Made by a program: the position numbers and the translations under genes. The notes below the pieces were generated by a model, which worked only from the letters and a program-made list of their open reading frames with translations, did no database searches and was not told where the DNA came from. A DNA stretch of 64,000 nt from an uncultured Prolixibacteraceae bacterium (GTDB taxonomy: Bacteria > Bacteroidota > Bacteroidia > Bacteroidales > FEN-979). Location: the NCBI GenBank assembly GCA_964473485.1, contig CAYYPH010000001.1:65722-129721 (forward strand), given 5' to 3'. This document shows positions 12,262 through 30,272 of the stretch, in pieces; position 1 is the first letter of the stretch, and each line of letters opens with the position of its first letter.

Positions 12262-12615
12262 CTAGAAAGTCAGCGTTTTGTCGCTGTCCAGCGTCCATTG
12301 CACCAGTTCCTTCATGGTGCTGAGTCCGGCGCCGGCAATGAGCGGCAGATCCTTGATGCCTCTTGCTTCGGCACAGGAACCACAGATTTTAACTTCCCCT
12401 CCTTTTAAAAGCACCGATTTGATCATCCTCTCAATATTATAATAACCCTGGGGTGTGTTTTGGTTGGGCAAGGCTGCCGTTGCAGCATCGGCCATCAAGA
12501 AAATACGGACTTCGGCGGTTTCATCCTCCTTCTGGATGGTCATGGCCATGCGCAGTGCATTGTAGGCTTTCTCGGTGCCGTAAGGTGCGTCGTTGATAAT
12601 GAACAGGATTTTCAT
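12262..12615 (-). CDS. DsrE/DsrF-like family protein (cytoplasmic paralog)
   Basis: 117 aa: MKILFIINDAPYGTEKAYNALRMA..., with CGSC (KICGSCAEARG) and a C-terminal ..DKTLTF. Confidence 0.7.
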   Translation of the reverse strand: MKILFIINDAPYGTEKAYNALRMAMTIQKEDETAEVRIFLMADAATAALPNQNTPQGYYNIERMIKSVLLKGGEVKICGSCAEARGIKDLPLIAGAGLSTMKELVQWTLDSDKTLTF

Positions 12616-12642
12616 TGTTGAATGTTGAAATGTTGTAAAATG

Positions 12643-13062
12643 CTAAAATGTTAAAACCTTATCAGACCACTTAACCATGTCGTACATGTCTTGCATGGTC
12701 GATAATGGGCACATTTCTGAACCCTCCTTTTGTCTGATTGTCAGACATGATCCGCATGCAAACACCTTTCCCCAGTTGTCAATAAATCTCCGTATCTGAT
12801 CTGTCACACTGAACTTCTTTGTATTTAAACGCTCACATTCAACACCTTTTGCCAGCAAAAATACGCGAACCGAATCTCCCTCTTCGAGTGCAAAATTTCC
12901 AAACCTGAAAGCGTTCCAAACCGTTTCAGGGTCATTGGAATAAATGATCATTCCGATTTTCATCCCAGGGGCAAGGATTGCTCCATTACCGGAATCCGGA
13001 TTTGTTTGTCTGATACCTGTGAAAGGAAGGAGAATGATCAGTAGAAAAAAAAACTGTTTCAT
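12643..13062 (-). CDS. DsrE/DsrF-like family protein with signal peptide (exported paralog)
   Basis: The ATG at 13062 gives MKQFFFLLIILLPFTGIRQ. The mature part parallels the neighbouring gene (FACGSCLTIRQ, ends ..DKVLTF). The longer ORF-track start lacks support. Confidence 0.6.
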   Translation of the reverse strand: MKQFFFLLIILLPFTGIRQTNPDSGNGAILAPGMKIGMIIYSNDPETVWNAFRFGNFALEEGDSVRVFLLAKGVECERLNTKKFSVTDQIRRFIDNWGKVFACGSCLTIRQKEGSEMCPLSTMQDMYDMVKWSDKVLTF

Positions 13063-13463
13063 GAATTTGTTTGTTTGAATGTGAGCTAACAAAGATATGC
13101 TAAAAAAAGATGTATTGCATTTTCGCCAGGATGCATAATAAAAAGGTTCGACCAGGGACCGTATTTTCCCGAAGGCAAGTTCTTTAGAGTTCATGACGTC
13201 AGTTTCAGGAATTTTATTAAAAACTAAATGATCCTTCCTGGTGAAGGCCTTGCCAGGTCCATCCCGGTGGGATAGCAAAACAAAGCCATATAAGCTGAGC
13301 TGCAGTTTCCGGCAGGTCGTTTGAGTTTCTGGATCGAAATAATTACAGGAAAAATTCTCGTGAAATTAACCGCTTCGATACAACAACCTTTAGTAAAGAT
13401 CCGGTTTACCCGAAAAAGAAAAGTTGGACCTGTCAAACAAATTGGGTCAACCTCAATGGTCCG

Positions 13464-15227
13464 CTAAGCCGGTTGCTGTTCATAAGGGGAATGACACGAA
13501 GGTATCGGTACACTGAACCTGAAGGTTGTACCTACCCCAGGTTCCGACGCAATCTCAATGTGCCCCTGGTTTCGTTCTACCAGCTCACTACAGAGGATCA
13601 GCCCCAGACCTGTTCCCTTTTCTTTGTTCGTTCCAGAGGTTGAAAAGGCAGTGTCAATCCTGAAAAGGTTGGGAATCGCCTCCGTCTTGATTCCGACACC
13701 GTTGTCCCTTATCCCGATAATCGCCATATCACCTTCATTGTCAGCTGAAATCTCAACCCACCCACCCGGATTGGTGAATTTTATCGCGTTTGTCAGAAGG
13801 TTACGGATAACGGTACGAATGGCATTTTCATCTGCGTATACCTGTCCGTCATAATGATATTGTTCGATGATCCTGATTTGTTTCAGTTCGGCCGATGACC
13901 GCACCAGTGCGGTAACCTCTGCCGCCACCTTCGCTATGTTGAATTCGCTGAAATTCATCTTCATGCCGTCTTGTTGCATGAGCGACCAGTTTAAAAGGTT
14001 GTCGATGAGCTGATAGCTCTTTTTGGCAAGGCCGGAAAATCTCCGGATGATATCCTTCCGCTCTTCTTCTGAATATTCGTTGTAAGACTCTGTAAGAAGG
14101 TTTGAAAATGAAAGCAGGGTGGCCATCGGATTACGCAAATCATGTGAGATGATGGAGAAGAATTTGTCCTTGGCAGCATTCAGTTCAATTAATTTCGAGG
14201 CCTGTTCCGCAAGGGTTTTCTCGCTTTGTTTCAAGAGCTCAAACTTCCGCGCATTCGAGATCGCCATCCCGGTCACACTGCCTATCACCATGCCAAGATC
14301 TTTATAATGACCAATATATTCCGGAAACCTGACATTGATCACGGAGATTTCCCCAAACTGCTTGTCGTGGCTAAGAATAAAACTAAAGGTATTTGCCACA
14401 TTGGTTTTTATGCCTTGCTGTGCAGGATTAAGATAGAAAGATACCGGTGGTTGGTTGTTTTCAAACCGTTGAAAGACAATATTCTCAGGAGCGTAAAGAA
14501 TGTTCAGCAACCGGAACATCCGTTCCAGAATATTCGTTTCGTTGGTCTCCGCCACCATGGCTTTTATTTCGCTGAACGCCACCATGATATCGGCCGATCG
14601 TTTCATATCCCTGGCAGTTTCGATGGAATGTCTTTCACGCTCAAGAATTTTCTGTTGCGAGATGACGTGATGGCGGACAAACATCCTGCAATAATCAATG
14701 CCGATCGGCAAAACTTCATAGGGAAGGCCTGTGTAAACTGAAAAGGCCTGTAGCGCTGGCAGCCAGTTATTGGTAATCCCTGTCTCCAGAAAGATGATCT
14801 TCCGGCACGACTCCGCGAAAAACTTTCGTGCCTGGTCCGCCGAAAATCCCCAGGTTGCCGAAAAATAATCGAAATTCTGCAGCCAGCCCTCCGAAACCAG
14901 GTACCCACCGTTGCGACTCAGATGGTGAAGTAGTGACGGCGGAGCGATTAACTCATGACACTGGCCAAGTTCTATTGGAACAACCCTGGCATCTGAGATC
15001 AGCCGACAGTCATGTGTAATGCAACTGCTTCCGAAAAGCAATCCTTTCATGTAGGTACTTTCTTTCCCACATAGCAATTGCTCAGCCTGCGCATTATTCA
15101 TCAGGGGTCCGGTACAATCGGTTGGCAGCCGCACTACGTCGACAGCCTCGAATCCCTCTTTGCCGACTGCGAAACTGACCTCCGGAAATACGGTATCGCA
15201 AACGAATATACAGATGTGAGAGATCAT
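13464..15227 (-). CDS. soluble sensor histidine kinase with a Cys-rich N-terminal domain (DUF1638-like?) and a GAF-like middle region
   Basis: H-box FFSIISHDLRNPM, N-box NLLTNAIKFT, G-boxes RDNGVGI and GTGLGL. No TM segment. The start ATG overlaps the stop of the upstream methyltransferase gene (ATGA). Confidence 0.85.
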   Translation of the reverse strand: MISHICIFVCDTVFPEVSFAVGKEGFEAVDVVRLPTDCTGPLMNNAQAEQLLCGKESTYMKGLLFGSSCITHDCRLISDARVVPIELGQCHELIAPPSLLHHLSRNGGYLVSEGWLQNFDYFSATWGFSADQARKFFAESCRKIIFLETGITNNWLPALQAFSVYTGLPYEVLPIGIDYCRMFVRHHVISQQKILERERHSIETARDMKRSADIMVAFSEIKAMVAETNETNILERMFRLLNILYAPENIVFQRFENNQPPVSFYLNPAQQGIKTNVANTFSFILSHDKQFGEISVINVRFPEYIGHYKDLGMVIGSVTGMAISNARKFELLKQSEKTLAEQASKLIELNAAKDKFFSIISHDLRNPMATLLSFSNLLTESYNEYSEEERKDIIRRFSGLAKKSYQLIDNLLNWSLMQQDGMKMNFSEFNIAKVAAEVTALVRSSAELKQIRIIEQYHYDGQVYADENAIRTVIRNLLTNAIKFTNPGGWVEISADNEGDMAIIGIRDNGVGIKTEAIPNLFRIDTAFSTSGTNKEKGTGLGLILCSELVERNQGHIEIASEPGVGTTFRFSVPIPSCHSPYEQQPA

Positions 15228-16267
15228 TCTTTAAGGCTGATCGGATAGGTGCCAAATGTATGTACCGCTTCTGAAATTGCAAGCAGGGTATCATCAGGCA
15301 CCTGGTAAGGAATCTCCCCATGGTTGTCTGAAAGAATGAATCCTCCGCCAGGCGCCGCTTTACGGATGATGTCCAGGACGATGTGCCGGGCGTTGGCTTC
15401 GTCCCAGTTACGCATCTCAATTCCGTTAAGGTTCCCCATCACCGTGAGCTTTTTTAAATAGGCGGCCTTCAGCTCTCCGATATCCTCCTGTGCACTTACA
15501 CCCACTACGGCCGTGCCGGTGGTGGCTACATCGTCAACGATCGTCAACGATCTCCCGGAAGCAAAATGAGTGGCTGTCGGACCTTTAATCTGCGAAATGG
15601 TCTTCTTCGCAATCTGCCATCCGGTTTCGAGGTATTTTTTCCGTGGTATAATGGTAGGGGAGGACACCGGGTCGAAATAGCATATAGCGGTGGCGCCTGC
15701 ACCCAGCTGGGCGTTGGCAAAAGCGACTGTGAATGCCTGGTTCACTGCCATTAATCGTGTGAACAGATCAGGTCTGAAATGCATGATCTCAAGATAATGG
15801 TCAAAACCCATCTGCATCACAGGCAGCGAAAAAGGCGACATGACCACGCCGATGATGGGCACATCACCTTTCACTTTCTTATTCAACAGGTCGATCGCCT
15901 CGTACACCCGTTGCATTACAGGGTGCCTTGCTGGATCTGGCGCCTCCAGCGTAAGAATCCTTTCCACATTGTTGATAATGGGTTGTGCCGAATTAGGTGG
16001 GCCGTCGTCGGTAAAAATAACCTCACCTCCGAATGCCTCAATCTCCAGTGGCGCATAAAAGAAAGTATAAAGACAATCGTTACGGTACTTTTTTCGCAGC
16101 CTCAGCTGCCCTTCGGCAACATGTGCGCCCTTTGAAAAATATTCGCGAATGCTCATTCCCAGCTCCCTGGCGCCATGCATGGTCAGGAGCAGGAACTGCG
16201 GTACCCGGTCGGGTTCCTGGTGACTCAGGGTTTTTAAAACCCGCTCCATGGAAGTCATCGTTTTCAT
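15224..16267 (-). CDS. uroporphyrinogen decarboxylase (URO-D)/MtaA-family corrinoid methyltransferase-like protein
   Basis: 347 aa: MERVLKTLSHQEPDRVPQFLL... through a ..GGFILSDNHGEIP C-terminus, typical of the URO-D/MtaA/CmuA family. It has 4-nt overlaps with both neighbours. Confidence 0.8.
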   Translation of the reverse strand: MKTMTSMERVLKTLSHQEPDRVPQFLLLTMHGARELGMSIREYFSKGAHVAEGQLRLRKKYRNDCLYTFFYAPLEIEAFGGEVIFTDDGPPNSAQPIINNVERILTLEAPDPARHPVMQRVYEAIDLLNKKVKGDVPIIGVVMSPFSLPVMQMGFDHYLEIMHFRPDLFTRLMAVNQAFTVAFANAQLGAGATAICYFDPVSSPTIIPRKKYLETGWQIAKKTISQIKGPTATHFASGRSLTIVDDVATTGTAVVGVSAQEDIGELKAAYLKKLTVMGNLNGIEMRNWDEANARHIVLDIIRKAAPGGGFILSDNHGEIPYQVPDDTLLAISEAVHTFGTYPISLKE

Positions 16268-16905
16268 TGGTTTCCTCCCGTTAATTCGTTTATCACCTTC
16301 AAAGCTTCTGCCGGATTTTTTCCCGAAGCATGGGCGCCCACCTCGTTCCAGAGGTTTTCATCGAAACGGAACGGAGCCCCGCCAACCACAATTTTTACTG
16401 GAGTTTCCTTTAGCGCCGTGGTCACCTCCCTGATTCTGAGCGCCGAGGGAAGCATGAGCGTCGACAGCATGAGAATTTCTGTTTTGTTTTCAATAACAAA
16501 TTCAATCAGGTCGGAGGCGTTCAGTCCATTGCCCAGGTCGGTGATTTCGTATCCCCCAGCCCGCAATACCGAGAGAATGATCCGTTTCCCAAGCATGTGG
16601 AAGTCTTCAAAAACACCGATGGCCATTCTCGGTTGAACTGTCCTGAACGCTGATTTTGCAGGGATTAGCTCATCGATGGTCTCTTCACAGATAATGCCGC
16701 TTAGATAGACCTGCGATAGAGAATAGAATCCCTTTTCCCATCCGGTACCGATCCGGTCCAGCGCCCCAACCACAAGGTCGCTTGCCGCATGAAAATGGCT
16801 GCCGTCCCCGGCAGCCTTACGGATTATCGAGGCGGCTTTTTCCCGGTCGAGCGAAAGCAACGCCAATTCCAGGCCTTCAATAAGTGCAGGGGTTATGCTT
16901 TTCAT
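16264..16905 (-). CDS. corrinoid (cobalamin)-binding protein, MtaC/MtbC-like
   Basis: B12-binding_2 helical cap plus a Rossmann domain with DxHxxG (EDFHMLG), SxL (STL) and GG (VGGAP) motifs. Confidence 0.85.
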   Translation of the reverse strand: MKSITPALIEGLELALLSLDREKAASIIRKAAGDGSHFHAASDLVVGALDRIGTGWEKGFYSLSQVYLSGIICEETIDELIPAKSAFRTVQPRMAIGVFEDFHMLGKRIILSVLRAGGYEITDLGNGLNASDLIEFVIENKTEILMLSTLMLPSALRIREVTTALKETPVKIVVGGAPFRFDENLWNEVGAHASGKNPAEALKVINELTGGNQ

Positions 16906-17019
16906 AAATACACCGTTAATGGTTACTCATTCATACGGGCCATCCAACGTTAATACCCTTTTAGCAAAATTTGAGGGATGTAAAAATAAAGAAAAAGGGA
17001 TAAAGAATCAACCGATCAT

Positions 17020-17655
17020 TCAGAGATTTCTGTTTCTGATTAGTATGAGAATGTACCCTGCAATCCCTGCTATCAGCAATCCGATGTCTTCTTTAATTCC
17101 AAAGTTGATAGCTGCAAAGAAACCGATGATCGACCATAGCAGCGGAAATATTAGAAGATGCCACGGAAACCGGTAATTCATCAGAAGCAGAAGCCCGAAT
17201 GTGTATATCGTAGTCGGGCAGGGGAGACCGAAAGTCGGAGATTCAGGATAAATGTGCCCGAGAACATTACCAAGAAGTGGATAGATGAACAACCCATAGA
17301 GAACAAACAACACTCCTGTAAATGAATAAACGTCAGGTCTGAAGATAACATTAATCCTCATATTCCGTAAGCCATACCAGGTAAACAGAAGGGCCTGGAT
17401 AATGTAAATACCGCCGAAGATCCATGCGGCCTTGTTGATGGTTGTAAAGAATAGGAAGTGATACATAGTACCCATCCAGAACCAGAGGAAGGCAAGAATT
17501 CCAGAAATAATCATGACTTTCTTGCCGGTACGCACGAACACTAATACAATTGCTACAATTGCCAGCAAATAAAGAATGATCTGTGAAGGCCAAACAGCCA
17601 GGTTGTAATTTCTGAACACCTCTATGAATTGTTCAGCAGTGAAAGGGGTTTTCAT
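17020..17655 (-). CDS. integral membrane protein (DUF6064-like)
   Basis: 211 aa with 6 predicted TM helices. The N-terminus MKTPFTAEQFIEVFRNYNLAVWP resembles the DUF6064 family as I remember it. Confidence 0.5.
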   Translation of the reverse strand: MKTPFTAEQFIEVFRNYNLAVWPSQIILYLLAIVAIVLVFVRTGKKVMIISGILAFLWFWMGTMYHFLFFTTINKAAWIFGGIYIIQALLFTWYGLRNMRINVIFRPDVYSFTGVLFVLYGLFIYPLLGNVLGHIYPESPTFGLPCPTTIYTFGLLLLMNYRFPWHLLIFPLLWSIIGFFAAINFGIKEDIGLLIAGIAGYILILIRNRNL

Positions 17656-17836
17656 CTTCGGTTCAAATCGTTACCTGTTTAAGATCAGTTGATTGTCTCG
17701 GTTGATTGGTTCTTTCTAAAGGAGGGCATATTTCTTACCTGTGAGAGGTCAATGAGTCAGATACCCTGACCAATTTGCCTCCAATGCCGTAAGCAAAGTA
17801 AGCAGCAACCGAGAACAATGTATTGCTGAGAAACAC

Positions 17837-18553
17837 TCATTTTGCTGCAAGTTTGAAGAAGCTTACCGTAAATGAGACCATCCACGCCATGATCAGAAGA
17901 CCACCGGGCATTGCAAGCATCAGGGCAAATTTACCCGCGCCAGGCAAAAAGGTTACCAGCACAATGTAAACGATCATCAACATATTACCCCCGAATCCCA
18001 GCCATGAAAAAATTTTCCTGAATGAACCTGACCGGGTCATATTCAGGGCCATAATCATTGCACCGATGGTCGGCAGCACAAAACCGATGAAAACACTAAA
18101 ACTGCCATGAGCTCCTTTTGCAAGCATTGTTTCACCTGCAGCTGCCAGCAAGTTTTTATGGGCTTCTGAATCAGTAGCAAAGTACTTTTGACTGAGGTCA
18201 GCCATTGGCAACGCCGTGTTTCCTGCAATAAACAAAGAAGTACCCACAAGGAAAACGATCAACGCGAGCAGACCCATTTTGTTGTTCTCTCCTGCAGCTA
18301 CATAAAGGGCCACATAGACCGGAATCAGCAGGAGCTGATTGATAACGTTGAGCAGATCCAGGTTGTATAGGCCAAGAAGAAAGTTGCCATGCAACTGTTG
18401 AAAACGTTCAACTGCAGTCTGAGGAAGGGAGTGGATATCACCGCCGGTAATAGATCCGGCAACAATGTCCAACATAATTCCGGCCAGGAACAGAATCGTG
18501 AATATGCCACCGATCCTGAAAATACAGGCAGAATGATCATTTAAATCTTTCAA
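17837..18553 (-). CDS. integral membrane protein (DUF4386-like)
   Basis: 238 aa, multi-TM. The family name is tentative. Confidence 0.45.
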   Translation of the reverse strand: MKDLNDHSACIFRIGGIFTILFLAGIMLDIVAGSITGGDIHSLPQTAVERFQQLHGNFLLGLYNLDLLNVINQLLLIPVYVALYVAAGENNKMGLLALIVFLVGTSLFIAGNTALPMADLSQKYFATDSEAHKNLLAAAGETMLAKGAHGSFSVFIGFVLPTIGAMIMALNMTRSGSFRKIFSWLGFGGNMLMIVYIVLVTFLPGAGKFALMLAMPGGLLIMAWMVSFTVSFFKLAAK

Positions 18554-18909
18554 TCCTGTGCAAGATTAAAGTCATTGAAGGCTTTTTCCAAAGCATTGAT
18601 AAAAGCTTTCGGGTCGTCTGGCGTAAAAAGAATCCTTTTCACAATGCCTTCTTTTTTATCAAGAACAATATGTTCCGTAAAATTCGCCCAGTCGAGTTTA
18701 ATTGCCGGACGGAAGTCTTTCAGGTGAAGGTCGCCTTTCAGCAAACCTTTAATCTCTGATTCTGAGACCAACGCCTTTTCAACATTCTCAAAGGGGATCA
18801 TGATATCTCCGGCCAGGGTCGCAAATTCCAGATGGTCTTTAAAAATCCTGTATTCCTGCCAGAGACTTTTAAGAGTACTCTTAGATAGATAAACAATTTC
18901 CTTTTTCAT
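18550..18909 (-). CDS. hypothetical cytoplasmic protein
   Basis: A 119-aa ORF with a 4-nt overlap with the downstream membrane protein gene. No recognisable motif. Confidence 0.5.
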   Translation of the reverse strand: MKKEIVYLSKSTLKSLWQEYRIFKDHLEFATLAGDIMIPFENVEKALVSESEIKGLLKGDLHLKDFRPAIKLDWANFTEHIVLDKKEGIVKRILFTPDDPKAFINALEKAFNDFNLAQD

Positions 18910-19392: not shown

Positions 19393-19693
19393 GGTCTGCG
19401 TTCCTGCAGCCGGTTCGGGTTTTTCCCGTCGTCTAATACTGCTCCTTAAAACCGGTTCTTCCCCAGATACCAACTTTTTCTTTTCCCCTCACCAGGCTGC
19501 CGAAACAAACAGCCCGCCTTATCCCTGCCCACTGTGGCCGCTTCATCATTAGCTGCCATTTTTACCAGGCTTGAAACGTTCCAAAAATGGAAGACATAGA
19601 TAGTGTGGCAGTAAGAGTGGTCATTATAGGCAAGGTCAGTATGAGTGAGGTACCTCCAACAATTTTAGGCTTGCGTCAATTCCCATCTCCTGA

Positions 19694-20116
19694 TCGCTGC
19701 CTGCCTCTGTCCGTCACTACCATTCGCGGCTTGCACAAGCTTGGGCTGCCGACAGGCTTGGCTTTTCACATCTACTTTCCCTGCAGCCCAACCTTCGCCG
19801 CTCATTACCCTGGACCAGATACTACCGGCAGCATGGCAAATCCATCCTCCACCACCCTTACCCCGCCGCTGAAGAGCGCAGCCGGGTAAGCCCGGAATGT
19901 TTATTCTTCCATCCCACCATCCCACCATTCCACCATCCCACCATTCCACCATTCCACCATCCCACAATTCCACCATTCCACCATTCCACCATCCCACCAT
20001 CCCACAATTCCACCATTCCACCATCCCACCATCCCACCATTCAGCCATTCCACTACGCATACGTCTCCTGCAACCCTATTTCGGCCTCCTCCGTCGGCCT
20101 CACAAAGTTGCAGATG
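19694..20116. repeat. copy A of a large tandem duplication (423 bp) containing an 8-nt microsatellite
   Basis: Aligns by eye with 20152-20486. Shared blocks: tcgctgcctgcc, cattcgcggc, aagcttgggctgcc, ccctgcagcccaaccttcgccgctcatt, ccgccgctgaagagcgcagccgggtaag, gcatacgtctcctgcaaccctatttcggcctcctccgtcggcctcaca. Confidence 0.85.
19909..20053. repeat. 8-nt microsatellite (ACCAT[T/C]CC)n, about 18 units
   Basis: Direct reading: ccatcccaccatcccaccattccaccatcccaccattccacc... The period is not a multiple of 3. Confidence 0.9.
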
Positions 20117-20151
20117 TCTATAACTTGTTATTTCTCGGTCACACAATCCTG

Positions 20152-20486
20152 TCGCTGCCTGCCGATTCCGGAATCTCCCATTCGCGGCACCCAAAGCTTG
20201 GGCTGCCGCTGGTCACATTGGCTTATCAGGTTTTTCCCTGCAGCCCAACCTTCGCCGCTCATTGCCCTCGACCAGAATCCACCGGCAGCATTGTAAATCA
20301 AACCTCCACCACCCTTTCCCCGCCGCTGAAGAGCGCAGCCGGGTAAGTCCGGAATGTTTATTCTTCGATCCCACCACCCCACCATCCCACCATCCCACCA
20401 TTCTGCCATTCTACCATTCCACCCCGCATACGTCTCCTGCAACCCTATTTCGGCCTCCTCCGTCGGCCTCACAACGTTACAGATGC
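20152..20486. repeat. copy B of the large tandem duplication (335 bp)
   Basis: Same blocks as copy A. The 88-bp length difference is explained by the shorter internal microsatellite. Confidence 0.85.
20369..20424. repeat. 8-nt microsatellite (ACCA[T/C]CCC-type), about 7 units
   Basis: tcccaccaccccaccatcccaccatcccaccattctgccattctaccattccac. Confidence 0.85.
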
Positions 20487-21007
20487 CATTTAATATTGGT
20501 TTTCCAAAACCCGGTACGACGAGTCAGGCAACGCATTTTTACCTCGATCTGTAACCCATAACATCAGCTTGTTATTCCAGATCTCGCTCCGGCCCCCGCC
20601 GGGCGCCTCATTAACACCACGTTTTCATCCTTACAGTCTGTGGTGTCAAACCATGCCATCACCTCATCAGCAAACCACGGCGCCCGGCAGGAGCCTCCGC
20701 TCCTCTTCCATAAAAGCTGCTGTCATGAGTTACCCCAATCCTTCCCCAATCAGCCGGCACCGGTAAATGCCATGCCCTGAGATGTACGAGCAGGTCCACA
20801 ATCCCTCATCGCCATTAACCCGCCACTGAAGAGCGTGGCCGCTTAATGTCAGCCATGGTTTCAGGTAACCCAGCCTCCTCCGGCCACCTCACTCGCCCTC
20901 GTCCCTCGGGCTTCATGAAGTGGCCGAAATATATTTCTTAATATACATTTGACCATTTTAAAACTGATCTTAATCCACAGGTTGCCATTTTTTTGTAACT
21001 TAGCATC

Positions 21008-22737: not shown

Positions 22738-23397
22738 ATGGCAATTGTTCAAAATCCGATCACAGGCAGAACCCGAAAAGCGTTCGGCACTGCCGTTTTC
22801 TCCAAGCAGTTTGGGCAGAACACCATGCGCACCAAACCTGCAGGAGTCAAGAACCCCAACACGGTGGGACAGGTTACCCAGCGTACCAAGTTCTCGACCA
22901 TCGTGAACCTGATCCGTCAGGTTTTACCCTTCATCAATGCAGCCTATACAGGCTTGCTGAAGAGTATGTCACCCTTCAACAAGATTGTGAGTCTGAATGT
23001 GAAGAACGCCTTTGCTGGCACCCCGCCGGTCCTGGATCATACCAGGCTGGTGCTGTGTGACCTCGAAGGAAGTTCGGTTTCCAACGTCGCGCTTCTCTCC
23101 CTGCCTTCCAGGACCATCGATTTCACCTGGTCGCCAAACACGACCGATCCCGACGAACTGGCCTCCATGCTTACGTTCATCCTGATCAATTGCACCACCA
23201 ACAAGGTGCTGGTGTTTGCGGATATCGAAATGCGTTCCTCCGGATCAGCTGAGATTAATGTCCCGGAAGACTGGGTTGGAGCCCAGACCGCCCTGCACGT
23301 GGTAACCCTCGACTATGCCCAGGCAGTCAGCGGGGTGCCCCGTACCATCATCAAGTTCAAAGCTGGGTGCGATGCAGCCAGTGTGGTTCAGGCCTGA
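22738..23397 (+). CDS. DUF6266-like protein with a basic N-terminal arm and a beta-rich body
   Basis: 219 aa: MAIVQNPITGRTRKAFGTAVFSKQFGQNTMRTKPAGVKNPNTVGQVTQRTKFS.., matching my memory of the Bacteroidota DUF6266 family. The gene is monocistronic and bracketed by hairpin terminators. Confidence 0.55.
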   Translation: MAIVQNPITGRTRKAFGTAVFSKQFGQNTMRTKPAGVKNPNTVGQVTQRTKFSTIVNLIRQVLPFINAAYTGLLKSMSPFNKIVSLNVKNAFAGTPPVLDHTRLVLCDLEGSSVSNVALLSLPSRTIDFTWSPNTTDPDELASMLTFILINCTTNKVLVFADIEMRSSGSAEINVPEDWVGAQTALHVVTLDYAQAVSGVPRTIIKFKAGCDAASVVQA

Positions 23398-23400
23398 GAA

Positions 23401-23434
23401 AGAAAGGCCGGGGTAACATCCGGCCTTTCTTTTC
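23401..23434 (+). terminator. rho-independent terminator
   Basis: agaaaggccgg-ggtaacat-ccggcctttct followed by tttt, starting 4 nt after the stop codon. Confidence 0.7.
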
Positions 23435-23452
23435 ACCCAATCAATACAAACA

Positions 23453-23725
23453 ATGACAGTAAAATCAACCATATTAGGATTACCGGTTCCCCAGGCCATC
23501 AGCCTGTTCACTTTCCTGCTGGCCCTCATCTCCATTTGGGTACATATGGAGATCAGGTTGGCTGAACTGAATGTTGAGCTCACCAATCTGAAACAGGACT
23601 TGATGTTCCATAAATCAGACAATGCAAAAAATTTCGATATGATCCGCACCGACATCAAGTCCGACACCAAGGAAATTCTCAAACGCATCGACGAAATTCA
23701 GATTTACCTCCGAAACAACAAGTGA
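23453..23725 (+). CDS. single-TM protein with a coiled-coil tail (lysis-cassette accessory or holin-like)
   Basis: 90 aa with an N-terminal TM (AISLFTFLLALISIWVHM) and then a heptad-like segment, RLAELNVELTNLKQDLMF. Confidence 0.45.
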   Translation: MTVKSTILGLPVPQAISLFTFLLALISIWVHMEIRLAELNVELTNLKQDLMFHKSDNAKNFDMIRTDIKSDTKEILKRIDEIQIYLRNNK

Positions 23726-23728
23726 ATT

Positions 23729-23920
23729 ATGAAAGAACGAATCTTCAACAACTGGAAAACCTCCGCGCTTGGCATCATCCTGCTGATCGCGGCCCTGGTA
23801 TTGCTTTTCATGAAAATCATCACCCTGGGCGAGTTCTCGGGCTTTTTTCCTACCATCCTCGGTCTCATCTATGTCCGCGACACCATCTTCAGGATCAAAC
23901 CATTTTCTGATAAAGCGTAG
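23729..23920 (+). CDS. two-TM small membrane protein, holin-like
   Basis: 63 aa with TM1 SALGIILLIAALVLLFMKII and TM2 FSGFFPTILGLIYV. It lies immediately upstream of a lysozyme gene. Confidence 0.5.
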   Translation: MKERIFNNWKTSALGIILLIAALVLLFMKIITLGEFSGFFPTILGLIYVRDTIFRIKPFSDKA

Positions 23921-23954
23921 TAACAATTTGTCTTCATCCACAAATCAAACCATA

Positions 23955-24467
23955 ATGGCAAACGTCAATCACCTCGCATTAAAGCTCTTCCCGATGGAAG
24001 GGCTTTTTAATTCCGATCCCCTCGATCACGGAGGCCCTACCAACCGGGGCATCACCCTCTCAACCTGGCGCAGGGTAGGGTGGGATAAAGACGGCGATGC
24101 CGACATCGATGTCGAAGATATCCGGATGCTAACCGCCGATGATGCCCTGCAGGTCCTGAAAAAACATTATTGGGATCGCTGGCGGGCCGATGAGATCAGA
24201 AATCAGAAGGTAGCCGACATTCTGGTCGACTGGCTCTGGTGCAGCGGTCATTGGGAGATTATCATCCCGCAGCGGATCCTTCGAGTGAAACCCGATGGAC
24301 TCGCCGGACCGGTCACCCTTCACGCCCTCAACAATGAGAATCCCTTCCGGCTGTTGATCAGGATCTATAACTCCCGCGTAGCATTTATTCATGACATCAT
24401 CAAAAAAGATCCCACCCAATGTCGCTTCGAGCGCGGATGGTATAACCGGTTAAATGCTTATTTGTAG
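23955..24467 (+). CDS. glycoside hydrolase family 108-type lysozyme (endolysin-like) with a peptidoglycan-binding C-terminal part
   Basis: The ATG at 23955 gives MANVNHLALKLFPMEGLFNSDPLDHGGPTNRGITLSTW. This matches the GH108 EGG-x-DP-x-D-x-GG-x-T-x-GIT catalytic motif. Confidence 0.75.
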   Translation: MANVNHLALKLFPMEGLFNSDPLDHGGPTNRGITLSTWRRVGWDKDGDADIDVEDIRMLTADDALQVLKKHYWDRWRADEIRNQKVADILVDWLWCSGHWEIIIPQRILRVKPDGLAGPVTLHALNNENPFRLLIRIYNSRVAFIHDIIKKDPTQCRFERGWYNRLNAYL

Positions 24468-24471
24468 ACCT

Positions 24472-24909
24472 ATGAAAACCGCCTTCAGATTATTCCTCAT
24501 GCTCCTGGCTGTAGTCCAAATTGGCTGCTCTCCCTCCGCCAGGTTAAACCGGTTACTCAGCCGGCATCCCGAACTGAAGTTCCCCGATACACTTTTCATT
24601 TCAGATACCATAATATTTCCCCATGTTGTGTTGGATACCCTGATCAAGCTTCACCCCGTTCAGGATACGATTGTCATGCAAAACGACCGTCTGGAAGTCA
24701 GAATTGAAAGGATTCACGATACACTCTATCTTAGGGGAAAGTGTAAAGCCGATACAGTGGTACTTCATCGGGTCATACCGGTCGAGAAAATTAAAGTCAT
24801 TAAACCGGATACCCTTGATCTTTTAATCCCCAGGATCCCCTGGCTAATTTCCGGCCTGATCTGCCTGCTTGCCTTTTTACTTGTTTTCGTCCTTAAAGTC
24901 TTCAGATAA
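24472..24909 (+). CDS. lipoprotein with a C-terminal TM anchor (unimolecular-spanin-like architecture)
   Basis: The ATG lies 4 nt after the lysozyme stop. Lipoprotein signal MKTAFRLFLMLLAVVQIGCS. C-terminal TM IPWLISGLICLLAFLLVFVLKVF. 145 aa. Confidence 0.45.
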   Translation: MKTAFRLFLMLLAVVQIGCSPSARLNRLLSRHPELKFPDTLFISDTIIFPHVVLDTLIKLHPVQDTIVMQNDRLEVRIERIHDTLYLRGKCKADTVVLHRVIPVEKIKVIKPDTLDLLIPRIPWLISGLICLLAFLLVFVLKVFR

Positions 24910-28790: not shown

Positions 28791-30272
28791 ATGGTTGATC
28801 CGGCACGAATACATAAATACAATTCCATCCACCCGACAGCAGGTCCGGTGGTTTACTGGATGCAGCGAGACCAACGGGTGGACGACAACTGGGCGCTGAT
28901 CTATGCGCAGGAGCAGGCGGTCGCCGTGAACCAGCCTTTGTTGGTTGTTTTTTGCCTTGCGCCGGGCTTCCTCGGTGCCACGATCAGGCAGTATGGCTTT
29001 ATGCTGAAAGGACTCGCTGAAGTCGAAAAACGCATGAGAATGCTGGGCCTCCCGTTTATTCTCCTGAGGGGATACCCGGTGGAAACACTTCCGGTTTTCC
29101 TGCATGTAACCACGGCGGGGATGCTCGTCACCGATTTCAATCCTGTGAAGCCTGTGATGCAATGGAAGGAGCAACTGACACGGGTGGTTAAAGTTGCTTT
29201 TCATGAGGCGGACGCCCACAATATCGTCCCTTGCCGCTATATCTCTGCGAAGCAGGAGTATGCCGCGTTTACTTTGCGGAAAAAGTTTTCACATCACCTT
29301 GACAGGTTCCTGACGGAATTTCCCGGACTTTTACCACAACCAGGTTTTAGGTGGAATACACCCTACACGGACATTGAATGGTATAAGGCCATACTATGGC
29401 CAAAAAACGTTGTTGGTCCTGACAGGAGTATCCCTGTGGCTGAATGGCTCGATGTGGTGCAAGCAGAACAAGGCGTGGAGACCCGGATCGGCGACACCAA
29501 GCGCAATGACTGGCTAGAGATTACCGAATGGCTGAAAGTCGACAGCTCGGTGGCAGAGGTTGATTGGCTGGCGCCGGGAGAAGAAGCAGCGCGGAACGGG
29601 CTTAGAAATTTTGTTGAATGTAGGCTGGATCATTACGCCACCGATCGTAATTTCCCCGACAAACCGGGCCAGTCCGACCTGTCGCCCTGGCTGCATTTCG
29701 GTCATATTTCGGCCCAACGGGTTGCCCTGGAGGTAAGGAATTCAGCTGCGGATGCCGCATCCGTCGGCGCATACCTCGAGGAGCTTATCGTAAGGCGCGA
29801 ACTGGCTGATAATTTCTGTCTCCATACCGAAAACTACGACTCGTTTGTGGCATTTCAGCCTTGGGCCCAGGCCACGTTGAATAAACACAGGAACGATCGC
29901 CGCGACTTTCTTTATACCGTTGAACAGTTTGAGAACGGCGAAACCCACGATGACCTTTGGAATGCGGCCCAGCGCGAAATGATCGTTAAGGGCAAGATGC
30001 ACGGCTTCATGCGCATGTACTGGGCCAAGAAGATCCTGGAGTGGACTGCATCGCCCGAGGAGGCGATGGCGATTGCCATCTACCTGAACGACAAATATGA
30101 ACTCGACGGCAGGGATCCTAACGGATATGCAGGGATTGCATGGGCCATCGGGGGCACGCACGACCGCCCGTGGGGCGAACGTCCGGTGTTCGGCATGATC
30201 CGGTTCATGAACTACCAGGGATGTAAAAGGAAATTCAATGTTGACGCCTATATAAAGGGAAACCTTCGATAG
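28791..30272 (+). CDS. deoxyribodipyrimidine photolyase (class II CPD photolyase-like)
   Basis: 493 aa: GPVVYWMQRDQRVDDNWALIYAQ at the N-terminus, and a FAD-binding C-terminal region (MHGFMRMYWAKKILEW, GYAGIAWAIGG.HDRPW). Confidence 0.85.
   Translation: MVDPARIHKYNSIHPTAGPVVYWMQRDQRVDDNWALIYAQEQAVAVNQPLLVVFCLAPGFLGATIRQYGFMLKGLAEVEKRMRMLGLPFILLRGYPVETLPVFLHVTTAGMLVTDFNPVKPVMQWKEQLTRVVKVAFHEADAHNIVPCRYISAKQEYAAFTLRKKFSHHLDRFLTEFPGLLPQPGFRWNTPYTDIEWYKAILWPKNVVGPDRSIPVAEWLDVVQAEQGVETRIGDTKRNDWLEITEWLKVDSSVAEVDWLAPGEEAARNGLRNFVECRLDHYATDRNFPDKPGQSDLSPWLHFGHISAQRVALEVRNSAADAASVGAYLEELIVRRELADNFCLHTENYDSFVAFQPWAQATLNKHRNDRRDFLYTVEQFENGETHDDLWNAAQREMIVKGKMHGFMRMYWAKKILEWTASPEEAMAIAIYLNDKYELDGRDPNGYAGIAWAIGGTHDRPWGERPVFGMIRFMNYQGCKRKFNVDAYIKGNLR

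Follow-up and report, generated by a model that had tools for sequence, protein, structure and literature searches.

A conserved triad of corrinoid protein, URO-D-family protein and DUF1638 kinase as a candidate sensing module in uncultured Bacteroidota and other lineages

The triad and the closest described systems

The MtaA/MtaC, MtbA/MtbC and MtsA/MtsB systems of methanogens pair a URO-D methyltransferase with a corrinoid carrier that is composed of a B12-binding_2 domain plus a B12-binding domain and bears a DxHxxG motif. A similar pair is encoded, together with a sensor kinase, on the minus strand of a 64-kb stretch of DNA (hereafter, the window) from an uncultured Prolixibacteraceae bacterium (GCA_964473485.1, contig CAYYPH010000001.1, positions 65,722 to 129,721). 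The triad occupies window positions 13464-16905 and consists of a corrinoid protein (open reading frame 1, ORF1), a URO-D-superfamily, methyltransferase-like protein (ORF2) and a soluble sensor histidine kinase (ORF3) that starts with a DUF1638 domain. Judged from sequence, the module most likely serves to signal to the cell in which chemical state a protein-bound corrinoid is, and we give roughly even odds to the reading that the three proteins form a cytoplasmic sensing module that reports methyl-donor availability or corrinoid state and does not serve bulk catabolism. Each of the proteins belongs to a known superfamily; the composition of the module is undescribed in the literature that we found, since searches on DUF1638/PF07796 and on combinations of corrinoid with kinase, URO-D or GGDEF returned no description of it.

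The pairing of one methyltransferase-like protein with one carrier has precedents. According to 10.1101/548461, methyl-corrinoid systems use "one or two cognate methyltransferases", MtpA/MtpC being an example, and the triad resembles this MtsA/MtpA-type arrangement of one methyltransferase with one corrinoid protein. Moreover, the UroD superfamily includes phenolic O-demethylases of the substrate-specific methyltransferase type (MT1), namely OdmB/VdmB (PMC10418091). Hence, one URO-D protein accompanied by one carrier is a known format and not an anomaly. Unlike MtaA-type systems, however, the triad has a URO-D protein that lacks both Cys zinc ligands (H-x-A) and scores far below the MtaA/CmuA cut-off, comes without coenzyme M metabolism, MT1 or RamA, and is co-translated with a sensor kinase.

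Aromatic O-demethylases (OdmABCD, VdmB and D. hafniense Dhaf_4610-4612) are similar in that their MT1 belongs to the UroD superfamily (PMC10418091) and in that the D. hafniense structure 4jgi is the nearest to ORF1; OdmB/VdmB and ORF2 have the superfamily in common. Their operons, however, add a pterin-type second methyltransferase (MT2) and an activating enzyme and feed one-carbon (C1) metabolism, whereas the triad has none of these. The widespread type 1 mlp clusters described by Kountz and Balskus (PMC10418091) likewise combine MtaA-like UroD proteins of non-methanogens with a corrinoid protein and lack a tetrahydrofolate methyltransferase, but they contain two to three Mlps and a Ram/RACE activase and are found mostly in Firmicutes; sensor kinases, Bacteroidota and DUF1638 are not mentioned in that paper (PMC10418091).

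The experimental information that we found on DUF1638 comes from work on split MetH (PMC5764234; PMC12478193). In Phaeobacter inhibens and Ruegeria pomeroyi, as in the triad, the DUF1638 gene adjoins the gene of a B12-binding carrier, there the B12-binding subunit of the split MetH; it is needed, along with a RamA-like protein, for this methionine synthase, and its mutants are rescued by methionine (PMC5764234). In alphaproteobacteria DUF1638 has nearly the phyletic pattern of the RamA-like activase, and as to what DUF1638 does, the authors made "no specific proposal" (PMC5764234); the R. pomeroyi protein was grouped with RamA and predicted to act in the reductive recharging of cobalamin (PMC12478193). 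Since DUF1638 is thus tied to keeping a corrinoid carrier functional, it is a plausible reader of the carrier state, and the kinase N-terminus may, by analogy, be a corrinoid-maintenance or corrinoid-recognition factor. Unlike the DUF1638 domain of the triad, which is fused to a kinase and accompanied by a URO-D-type methyltransferase-like enzyme with no RamA in the window, that of split MetH stands alone, is found with pterin- and homocysteine-binding methyltransferase domains and requires a RamA-like activase.

Among sensors, the soluble kinases MsmS/RdmS of Methanosarcina have a functional tie to corrinoid methyltransferase genes. A GAF domain that binds haem is their input, and the methyltransferase genes that they regulate are not co-translated with them. 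The window kinase, in contrast, matches no GAF, PAS or haem family and has DUF1638 as its input. In CarH, AerR and the predicted photoglobin-B12 systems (PMC8717448), a B12-binding_2 plus B12-binding module serves as sensory element and, as in the triad, is linked to kinases, GGDEF proteins and comparable outputs. The triad, however, lacks the W-x9-EH motif of CarH, a photoglobin and a DNA-binding domain, and its carrier is a separate protein with methyltransferase-like and DUF1638 partners.

Conservation and components of the triad

In all loci that we looked up (L001, L002 and L004-L010), a carrier of 208-213 amino acids (aa) is followed by a URO-D protein of 346-353 aa and then by a DUF1638 protein. 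These loci come from a Porphyromonadaceae metagenome-assembled genome (MAG; L001), a Logan contig (L002), a Prolixibacteraceae MAG (L004), Bacteroidales MAGs (L005 and L008-L010), the 4.1-Mb assembly GCA_942493345.1 (L006) and a SAR324 MAG (L007). A metagenome scan with the ORF2 alignment yielded at least 236 confirmed loci, 80 of which were kept. Counted over de-duplicated loci with an ORF2 relative at E < 1e-90 and enough flanking sequence, the carrier gene lies directly upstream of the URO-D gene in 50 of 52 loci, and in 44 of 51 the next gene downstream is one whose product begins with DUF1638. A stop/start overlap of 4 nt is available at the carrier/URO-D junction in 44 of 57 loci and the URO-D/DUF1638 junction falls within ±26 nt in 45 of 47, both counts being upper estimates, since the choice of start codons favours short spacings. 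In the window itself both junctions are ATGA overlaps, located exactly where a preliminary description of this DNA had placed them. As the same gene order is found in dozens of independent loci, a chance recurrence is ruled out; the module, whose co-translated kinase had been singled out as new for Bacteroidota, occurs in many metagenomic lineages, including SAR324.

The survey of neighbourhoods which that description had proposed revealed that only signalling families recur beside the triad: of all families matched by 97 flanking ORFs, PAS, Response_reg, HATPase_c and GGDEF alone turned up more than three times. The annotated flanks of related loci contain no MT1, RamA or pterin methyltransferase, and substrate transporters, a second methyltransferase, an activase, C1-pathway genes and genes for corrinoid transport or salvage are not recurrent near the triad. 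Two individual arrangements may be recorded. At the SAR324 locus (L007, 3509-6422), the triad, which ends with a DUF1638-HisKA-HATPase-receiver hybrid, is divergent from NikR and a CbiM/CbiQ/ABC cobalt-nickel transporter, an arrangement seen at this one locus. In the 4.1-Mb assembly (L006, 16754-17041), two more PAS kinases follow the triad and precede a second gene of the B12-binding_2 plus B12-binding type, which may encode a second corrinoid-linked sensor in the same array.

The Cys-rich stretch of about 200 aa at the N-terminus of the kinase had been likened to DUF1638, and its homologues bear this out. When the first 213 aa are scanned alone against PF07796, aa 69-181 match at E 4.3e-5, with 23.9 bits against a gathering score of 27; the match appears only on the isolated N-terminus, and the full-length kinase gives none. 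An exhaustive profile search with kinase aa 1-200, however, returned 1134 cluster representatives at E ≤ 1e-3, including 157 at E ≤ 1e-30, and 68 of the 69 retrieved proteins that were scanned match DUF1638 (32/32 and 36/37, with best E-values of 3.8e-17 and 1.9e-14, respectively). The exception is the full-length kinase of the window, which was scanned with 36 complete proteins from related loci as the set of 37; P0003 and L004 match above the gathering score. By homology to these matching proteins, the kinase N-terminus is a genuine DUF1638 domain. A word-indexed protein search with kinase aa 1-342 had found three relatives, and one with a three-sequence N-terminal profile none. Set against the 1134 representatives, this apparent rarity is an artefact of the word-indexed search, and rarity deduced in such a way is not to be trusted for fast-evolving sensor domains.

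The architectures of the DUF1638 proteins were compared in a set of 152, made up of the best 150 of the 1134 representatives with P0002 and P0003 added. DUF1638 is N-terminal in every one of these best 150, the middle region that follows it is common to 129 of the 152 proteins and the HisKA/HATPase core to 97 of them, while the 32 members without this kinase core that formed the 32/32 set above carry GGDEF (10), HisKA_2/HWE kinases, EAL, HD-GYP, STAS, PAS or GAF. Likewise, the 37 proteins encoded downstream of URO-D genes contain HisKA (24), HATPase_c (25), GGDEF (10), a receiver (3) and Hpt (1). In bacterial architectures, sensory input domains are typically recognised by an N-terminal position ahead of a coiled coil and by fusion to a variety of signalling outputs. 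Since DUF1638 is N-terminal, is followed by a coiled coil and precedes at least five output classes, it appears to be such a domain.

Four Cys residues of the domain (C10, C38, C69 and C90) are present in at least 90% of the sequences in alignments A3, A4, A6 and A7, and are invariant in a set that includes the stand-alone DUF1638 protein and start-corrected P0003. Of the Cys residues listed in the preliminary description, these four are near-invariant, whereas C6, C53 and C74 are not. The deposited start of P0003 (GCA_964512915.1; L001 9971-10000) seems mis-called: extension of the frame by 30 nt upstream (MNRKLCLYVC...) restores the first conserved Cys. An AlphaFold2 (AF2) model of the domain alone (predicted local distance difference test, pLDDT, 93.2; predicted template modelling score, pTM, 0.89) has an alpha/beta fold in which each conserved Cys follows the C-terminal end of one of the strands beta1-beta4, a topology that would cluster the four residues in space. 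The domain model had no match among solved structures at E ≤ 1e-3.

ORF1 consists of two domains, a cap followed by a Rossmann domain, and both match Pfam above the gathering score, B12-binding_2 (PF02607) with 30.7 bits against 23 and B12-binding (PF02310) with 57.5 bits against 32.1. The DxHxxG, SxL and GG motifs on which the protein had been called a corrinoid protein could all be located (Table 1), and the family motifs iG..We.G..LsQvYmsg, D.H.LG, S.LM and VGGAPFrfD are conserved over 53 orthologues. At the level of its primary structure, ORF1 has all the features needed for His-on corrinoid binding, as in the carriers of corrinoid methyltransferases. Its best solved relatives are methyltransferase corrinoid proteins, first 4jgi (D. 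hafniense O-demethylase) and then 3ezx (MtmC), 1y80 and 7xcn (MttC); the cobalamin-binding GGDEF proteins 8j2w, 8j2x and 8j2y are also among its solved relatives. The best NCBIfam match, TIGR02370, scores 66 bits against a cut-off of 215.3, and no cut-off of the pyl_corrinoid, MtbC, MtaC or MtgC models is reached. By these scores, ORF1 is a divergent carrier branch and none of the named carriers. A CarH-like photoreceptor identity was considered and rejected, as ORF1 reaches 38.5 bits with the CarH model, for which the cut-off is 400, and the W-x9-E-H motif is absent; W56 of ORF1 has Y66-L67 at +10/+11, and the cap consensus of the family, LsQvYmsg, resembles MtmC.

ORF2 matches Pfam URO-D (PF01208) over its full length (E 3e-59, 201 bits), in agreement with the family named at the outset. 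In a profile search of solved structures it is about equidistant from MtaA (4ay7, the best match at 5e-15) and HemE (1.5e-12); it scores 93.4 bits against TIGR01463 (MtaA/CmuA; cut-off 235.4) and 110.1 bits against PRK06252 (cut-off 244). A HemE function is rejected by the score of 65 bits against TIGR01464, whose cut-off is 302.95. In a HMMER alignment to MtaA (PDB 4ay7), the His and the Cys that bind zinc are matched by His234 and Ala236, respectively, so that the Cys-less THFASG at the H-x-C position, previously read by eye, is upheld. Ala236 is invariant in 30 orthologues, and the Cys residues of ORF2 are 65 and 196 only. Given that no Cys follows residue 196 and that Ala236 stands at the zinc Cys, an MtaA-type zinc-thiolate site is excluded, and with it, both MtaA Cys ligands being absent and the His retained, thiol methylation of the MtaA type. 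The near-invariance of H234, E261 and the dnHGEIP motif among homologues suggests that the active site is conserved but of a different kind. A homologue search returned 4117 proteins at E ≤ 1e-5, and the best 120 of them are 64-72% identical to ORF2, except for one 99% copy; the kinase shares about 25-35% identity with its relatives, well below these values. Such strong conservation of the URO-D protein relative to the kinase is expected for an enzyme with fixed chemistry.

ORF3 had been described as a histidine kinase without transmembrane segments, and this description holds: HisKA (PF00512, aa 352-416, 35.3 bits) and HATPase_c (PF02518, aa 466-576, 91.8 bits) are both present, and the maximum Kyte-Doolittle hydropathy over 19 residues is 1.44, at which no transmembrane segment is predicted. 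Residues H362, N480, D508, G510, G512, G540 and G542 are invariant across 49 orthologues, an indication that the catalytic residues are intact. In the AF2 model of the full-length kinase (pLDDT 87.5), the C-terminal half superposes on the kinase cores of HK853, WalK and DivL (Foldseek), and a small four-stranded alpha/beta middle domain, GAF/PAS-like in secondary structure, leads by a continuous helix into the DHp and CA domains. Conserved positions in and after the middle region are E230, G292, P302 and Y308. The long helix and the middle domain match no Pfam family, and kinase aa 196-356 gave no GAF or PAS match in Pfam even at E ≤ 10, and no haem family.

Pfam scans of the window covered 10 ORFs directly and about 45 more, singly or concatenated, from a greedy non-overlapping choice of ORFs of at least 90 aa; coverage is nearly complete and leaves out a few ORFs near both ends of 52.7-64 kb. 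The scanned ORFs contain no MttB, MtaB, MtmB or MtbB, no pterin-binding methyltransferase, no RamA/RACE activase (DUF4445) and no Response_reg. A hidden Markov model built from three receivers of related loci likewise found no receiver in any six-frame ORF of at least 50 aa in the window; as a positive control, it gave 29 matches in related loci. The preliminary description, which stated that the triad lacks an MT1, an activase and a response regulator, is thus supported by the window scans, and neither these nor the annotated flanks of related loci place an MT1 and an activase just outside the operon. Its premises, however, have to be amended, because the UroD superfamily includes MT1-type enzymes and because DUF1638 is tied to the maintenance of a B12 enzyme, so that "no activase" is not strictly true of the operon.

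A sensing model and its rivals

Candidate signals for the module are light, the supply of corrinoid, and the state of the corrinoid as regards methylation or redox. In the model that we favour, the URO-D protein would, as its family suggests, dock on the carrier corrinoid, move a methyl group to or from a small-molecule donor or acceptor and so set the methylation state of the carrier according to that donor or acceptor. Because the Cys zinc ligands are missing, a thiol with MtaA-like activation is an improbable partner of the URO-D protein. In the kinase, the DUF1638 domain, an alpha/beta domain with four Cys, would recognise the carrier or exchange electrons with it, as synteny, domain architecture and genetics elsewhere suggest, and its state would differ according to the form of the corrinoid, methyl-Co(III), Co(I) or Co(II), or to its absence. 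On the AF2 model, the signal would pass through the coiled coil and the middle domain to DHp/CA and set the autophosphorylation of His362; the receiver of the phosphoryl group would be encoded elsewhere in the genome. In other genomes, the same input feeds hybrid kinases, neighbouring multi-PAS phosphorelays or GGDEF cyclases. That a dedicated enzyme writes methyl-Co(III) versus Co(I)/Co(II) on the carrier and that a DUF1638 reader thereby drives a kinase or cyclase, which would be a new class of signal input, we hold at somewhat less than even chances.

The conservation of the triad, the variety of its signalling outputs and the restriction of its recurrent neighbours to signalling families support a sensory rather than a catabolic reading. 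Hence, the earlier proposal of a single sensory unit holds insofar as the triad is conserved and looks sensory, with its premises on MT1 and activase corrected as above. Several points weigh against it. The window encodes no cognate response regulator within its 64 kb; the contact between DUF1638 and the carrier is suggested by synteny and by the MetH genetics; and the presumed methyltransferase activity of ORF2 goes with scores below the cut-offs of every curated subfamily. Additionally, 7 of 51 loci have no detectable DUF1638 start downstream of the URO-D gene: in four of them (L013, L017, L019 and L047) the downstream protein starts at the middle domain, which in L017 is followed by PAS and GGDEF, two gave no match at all, and the remaining one matched a kinase core only. 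Finally, at L062 (5282-7855) the carrier and URO-D pair is followed by a stand-alone DUF1638 protein of 208 aa that lacks an output domain; hisD and aroA flank this variant. Signalling is thus dispensable to the triad, whose core function may be enzymatic.

Such an enzymatic operon, in which the carrier, the URO-D protein and DUF1638, as a maintenance or reactivation subunit, transfer methyl groups while the middle or PAS domains give the kinase or GGDEF part a different input, would account for L062 and for the four loci that begin at the middle domain. It also agrees with the strong conservation of the URO-D protein and with the one-methyltransferase corrinoid systems mentioned in 10.1101/548461. 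We nevertheless regard it as unlikely, since DUF1638 lies N-terminal, ahead of a coiled coil, and is fused to at least five output classes, which is a hallmark of input domains, and since no substrate transporters, second methyltransferase, activase or C1-pathway genes recur alongside. A redox or oxygen sensor, for which we would claim an equally low probability, would have an Fe-S cluster or other redox metal in the Cys4 site as the primary sensor, with the carrier and URO-D protein as its redox partner or client, and its kinase would report the redox state of the cell instead of a methyl donor. Four near-invariant Cys residues at the ends of four consecutive parallel strands of the model would make a typical cofactor site, DUF1638 co-occurs with a RamA-like activase and is predicted to act in reductive cobalamin recharging (PMC5764234; PMC12478193), and the hosts appear anaerobic, given hgcAB in the window. 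This explanation, however, leaves the coupling of URO-D protein and carrier to the sensor in about 90% of loci unexplained, and DUF1638 has no Fe-S family or fold match in Pfam or among solved structures.

Less probable still is a sensor of corrinoid supply or identity, in which DUF1638 or the carrier would bind free corrinoid and the kinase would control uptake or remodelling. DUF1638 mutants specifically disable a B12 enzyme (PMC5764234), one triad (L007) adjoins NikR and a CbiMQ-type cobalt/nickel transporter, and a B12 riboswitch, which could do this job instead, is absent from the window; but such a sensor gives no role to the URO-D enzyme, which is the most conserved component, and genes for corrinoid transport or salvage are not recurrent next to the triad. 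A renewable B12 photoreceptor, in which light would photolyse the methyl-corrinoid of the carrier, DUF1638 would detect Co(II) and the URO-D protein would re-methylate, is the least probable of the four: its B12-binding_2 plus B12-binding module is that of CarH-type photoreceptors and in photoglobin-B12 systems has kinases and GGDEF proteins as its predicted outputs (PMC8717448), cobalamin-binding GGDEF proteins are among the solved relatives of ORF1 and a class II photolyase in the window implies, with marginal relevance, that the organism meets light, but the carrier fits the NCBIfam model of methyltransferase carriers better than that of CarH (66 versus 38.5 bits, with the same order in solved structures), lacks W-x9-E-H and has an MtmC-like cap consensus, and many hosts are probably anaerobes of sediments or digesters.

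Window context and implications of the triad

The positions of the triad, its functional residues and the other features of the window are given in Table 1. The operon is preceded by an intergenic region of 114 nt, presumably its promoter site, in which sigma-70 and terminator scans gave no more than the shuffled expectation, with models that were not built for Bacteroidota promoters. A Rfam scan of the window, including this region, found no cobalamin riboswitch and no other RNA family. The genes on either side of the operon recur in a 99%-identical copy (L091; 529-kb scaffold, ENA assembly ERZ28614612), which has the same DUF4386, DUF6064 and DsrE-like neighbours. As the DsrE/DsrF-like, DUF6064, DUF4386 and bPH-like neighbours are kept there and not at other triad loci, they are probably unrelated to the module.

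Table 1. Positions of the triad and of other features in the 64-kb window
Feature	Position (nt)	Strand	Remarks
Corrinoid (B12-binding) protein, ORF1	16264..16905	-	213 aa
ORF1 four-helix cap	16669-16884	-	aa 8-79; B12-binding_2
ORF1 Rossmann B12-binding domain	16300-16608	-	aa 100-202; B12-binding
ORF1 DxHxxG (D101-F-H103-M-L-G106)	16588-16605	-	His103 at 16597-16599
ORF1 SxL (S148-T-L150)	16456-16464	-	
ORF1 GG (G175-G176)	16378-16383	-	
ATGA stop/start overlap, corrinoid-protein gene / URO-D gene	16264..16267	-	4 bases, read on coding strand
URO-D-superfamily, methyltransferase-like protein, ORF2	15224..16267	-	347 aa
ORF2 T233-H-F-A-S-G238	15554-15571	-	MtaA zinc-ligand position
ATGA stop/start overlap, URO-D gene / kinase gene	15224..15227	-	4 bases, read on coding strand
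Soluble sensor histidine kinase, ORF3	13464..15227	-	587 aa; DUF1638, coiled coil, middle domain, DHp, CA
DUF1638 input domain of kinase	14697..15227	-	aa 1-177; Pfam, profile search, AF2 model
Near-invariant C10 of DUF1638	15198-15200	-	
Near-invariant C38 of DUF1638	15114-15116	-	
Near-invariant C69 of DUF1638	15021-15023	-	
Near-invariant C90 of DUF1638	14958-14960	-	
Long helix and small middle alpha/beta domain	14325..14696	-	aa 178-226 and aa 227-301; AF2 secondary structure
Signalling helix with DHp, and CA ATP-binding domain	13467..14324	-	aa 302-420 and aa 421-587; HisKA/HATPase_c
Predicted phospho-acceptor His362	14142-14144	-	
Intergenic region 5' of the operon	16906..17019	-	114 nt; presumed promoter site
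DUF6064, DUF4386 and bPH-like proteins	17020-18909	-	upstream neighbours
Two DsrE/DsrF-like proteins	12262-13278	-	downstream neighbours
His/Pro-rich ORFs	19587-20346		probably repeat artefacts
Direct repeats	19776-20846		46-nt cores at 19844, 20301, 20801
Phage-like/cell-wall genes	22738-24909		
DUF6266	22738-23397		
GH108 lysozyme with PG_binding_3	23871-24467		
Class II deoxyribodipyrimidine photolyase	28791-30272	+	
Arsenic island	39210-46122	-	around hgcAB
ACR3/SBF-type exporter	39210-40256	-	
HgcB	40280-40594	-	C-terminal CC
HgcA	40578-41606	-	GINVWCAAGKG motif
DsbD-like membrane protein	41613-42410	-	
ArsC (low-molecular-weight phosphatase)-ArsM fusion	42635-43867	-	
ArsR	43931-44299	-	
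Two DGC-domain proteins	44346-45200	-	
DGC-GcvH fusion	45190-46122	-	unusual

A second corrinoid protein system is encoded in the same genome, as HgcA (427 bits against a cut-off of 275) and HgcB (120 against 99) are, by score and motif, a genuine mercury-methylation pair (40280-41606). A link of the triad to hgcAB, 24 kb away, such as a supply of methyl groups to HgcA, was considered and rejected, since none of the other triad loci contains the HgcA motif. The pair lies within an arsenic island in which the arsenite methyltransferase part of the ArsC-ArsM fusion scores 344 bits against 263. The class II photolyase (TIGR00591, 601.8 bits against 550) belongs to a presumed anaerobe with hgcAB. 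Direct repeats that recur about every 457-500 nt lie at 18-24 kb, where the GC skew is strongly negative; their 190-nt copies are 91% identical and gave no Rfam match; the adjacent DUF6266 and GH108 genes may be a prophage remnant. No tRNA was found in the window, and Pfam scans detected type IX secretion system (T9SS) sorting domains in several of its proteins, which, together with the closest relatives, assign the organism to Bacteroidota.

The widespread domain DUF1638 has a clear phenotype in genetics, as methionine synthesis that depends on B12 fails in its absence, and it now appears as the N-terminal input of more than 100 distinct kinases and cyclases, beside a corrinoid protein and a URO-D-type enzyme, a setting that offers a testable hypothesis for it, namely the recognition of the state of a corrinoid protein. 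The low yield of word-indexed searches may explain why the module went unnoticed. If the sensing model is true, DUF1638 would gain its first molecular function, as a reader of corrinoid-protein state, and methyl-donor or corrinoid-state sensing would be widespread in anaerobic Bacteroidota, SAR324 and other lineages. B12 chemistry would then act in a sensor as a chemically written second messenger, and not as a catalyst or a light antenna, and abundant uncultured anaerobes would possess a regulatory pathway for methylated compounds or redox state.

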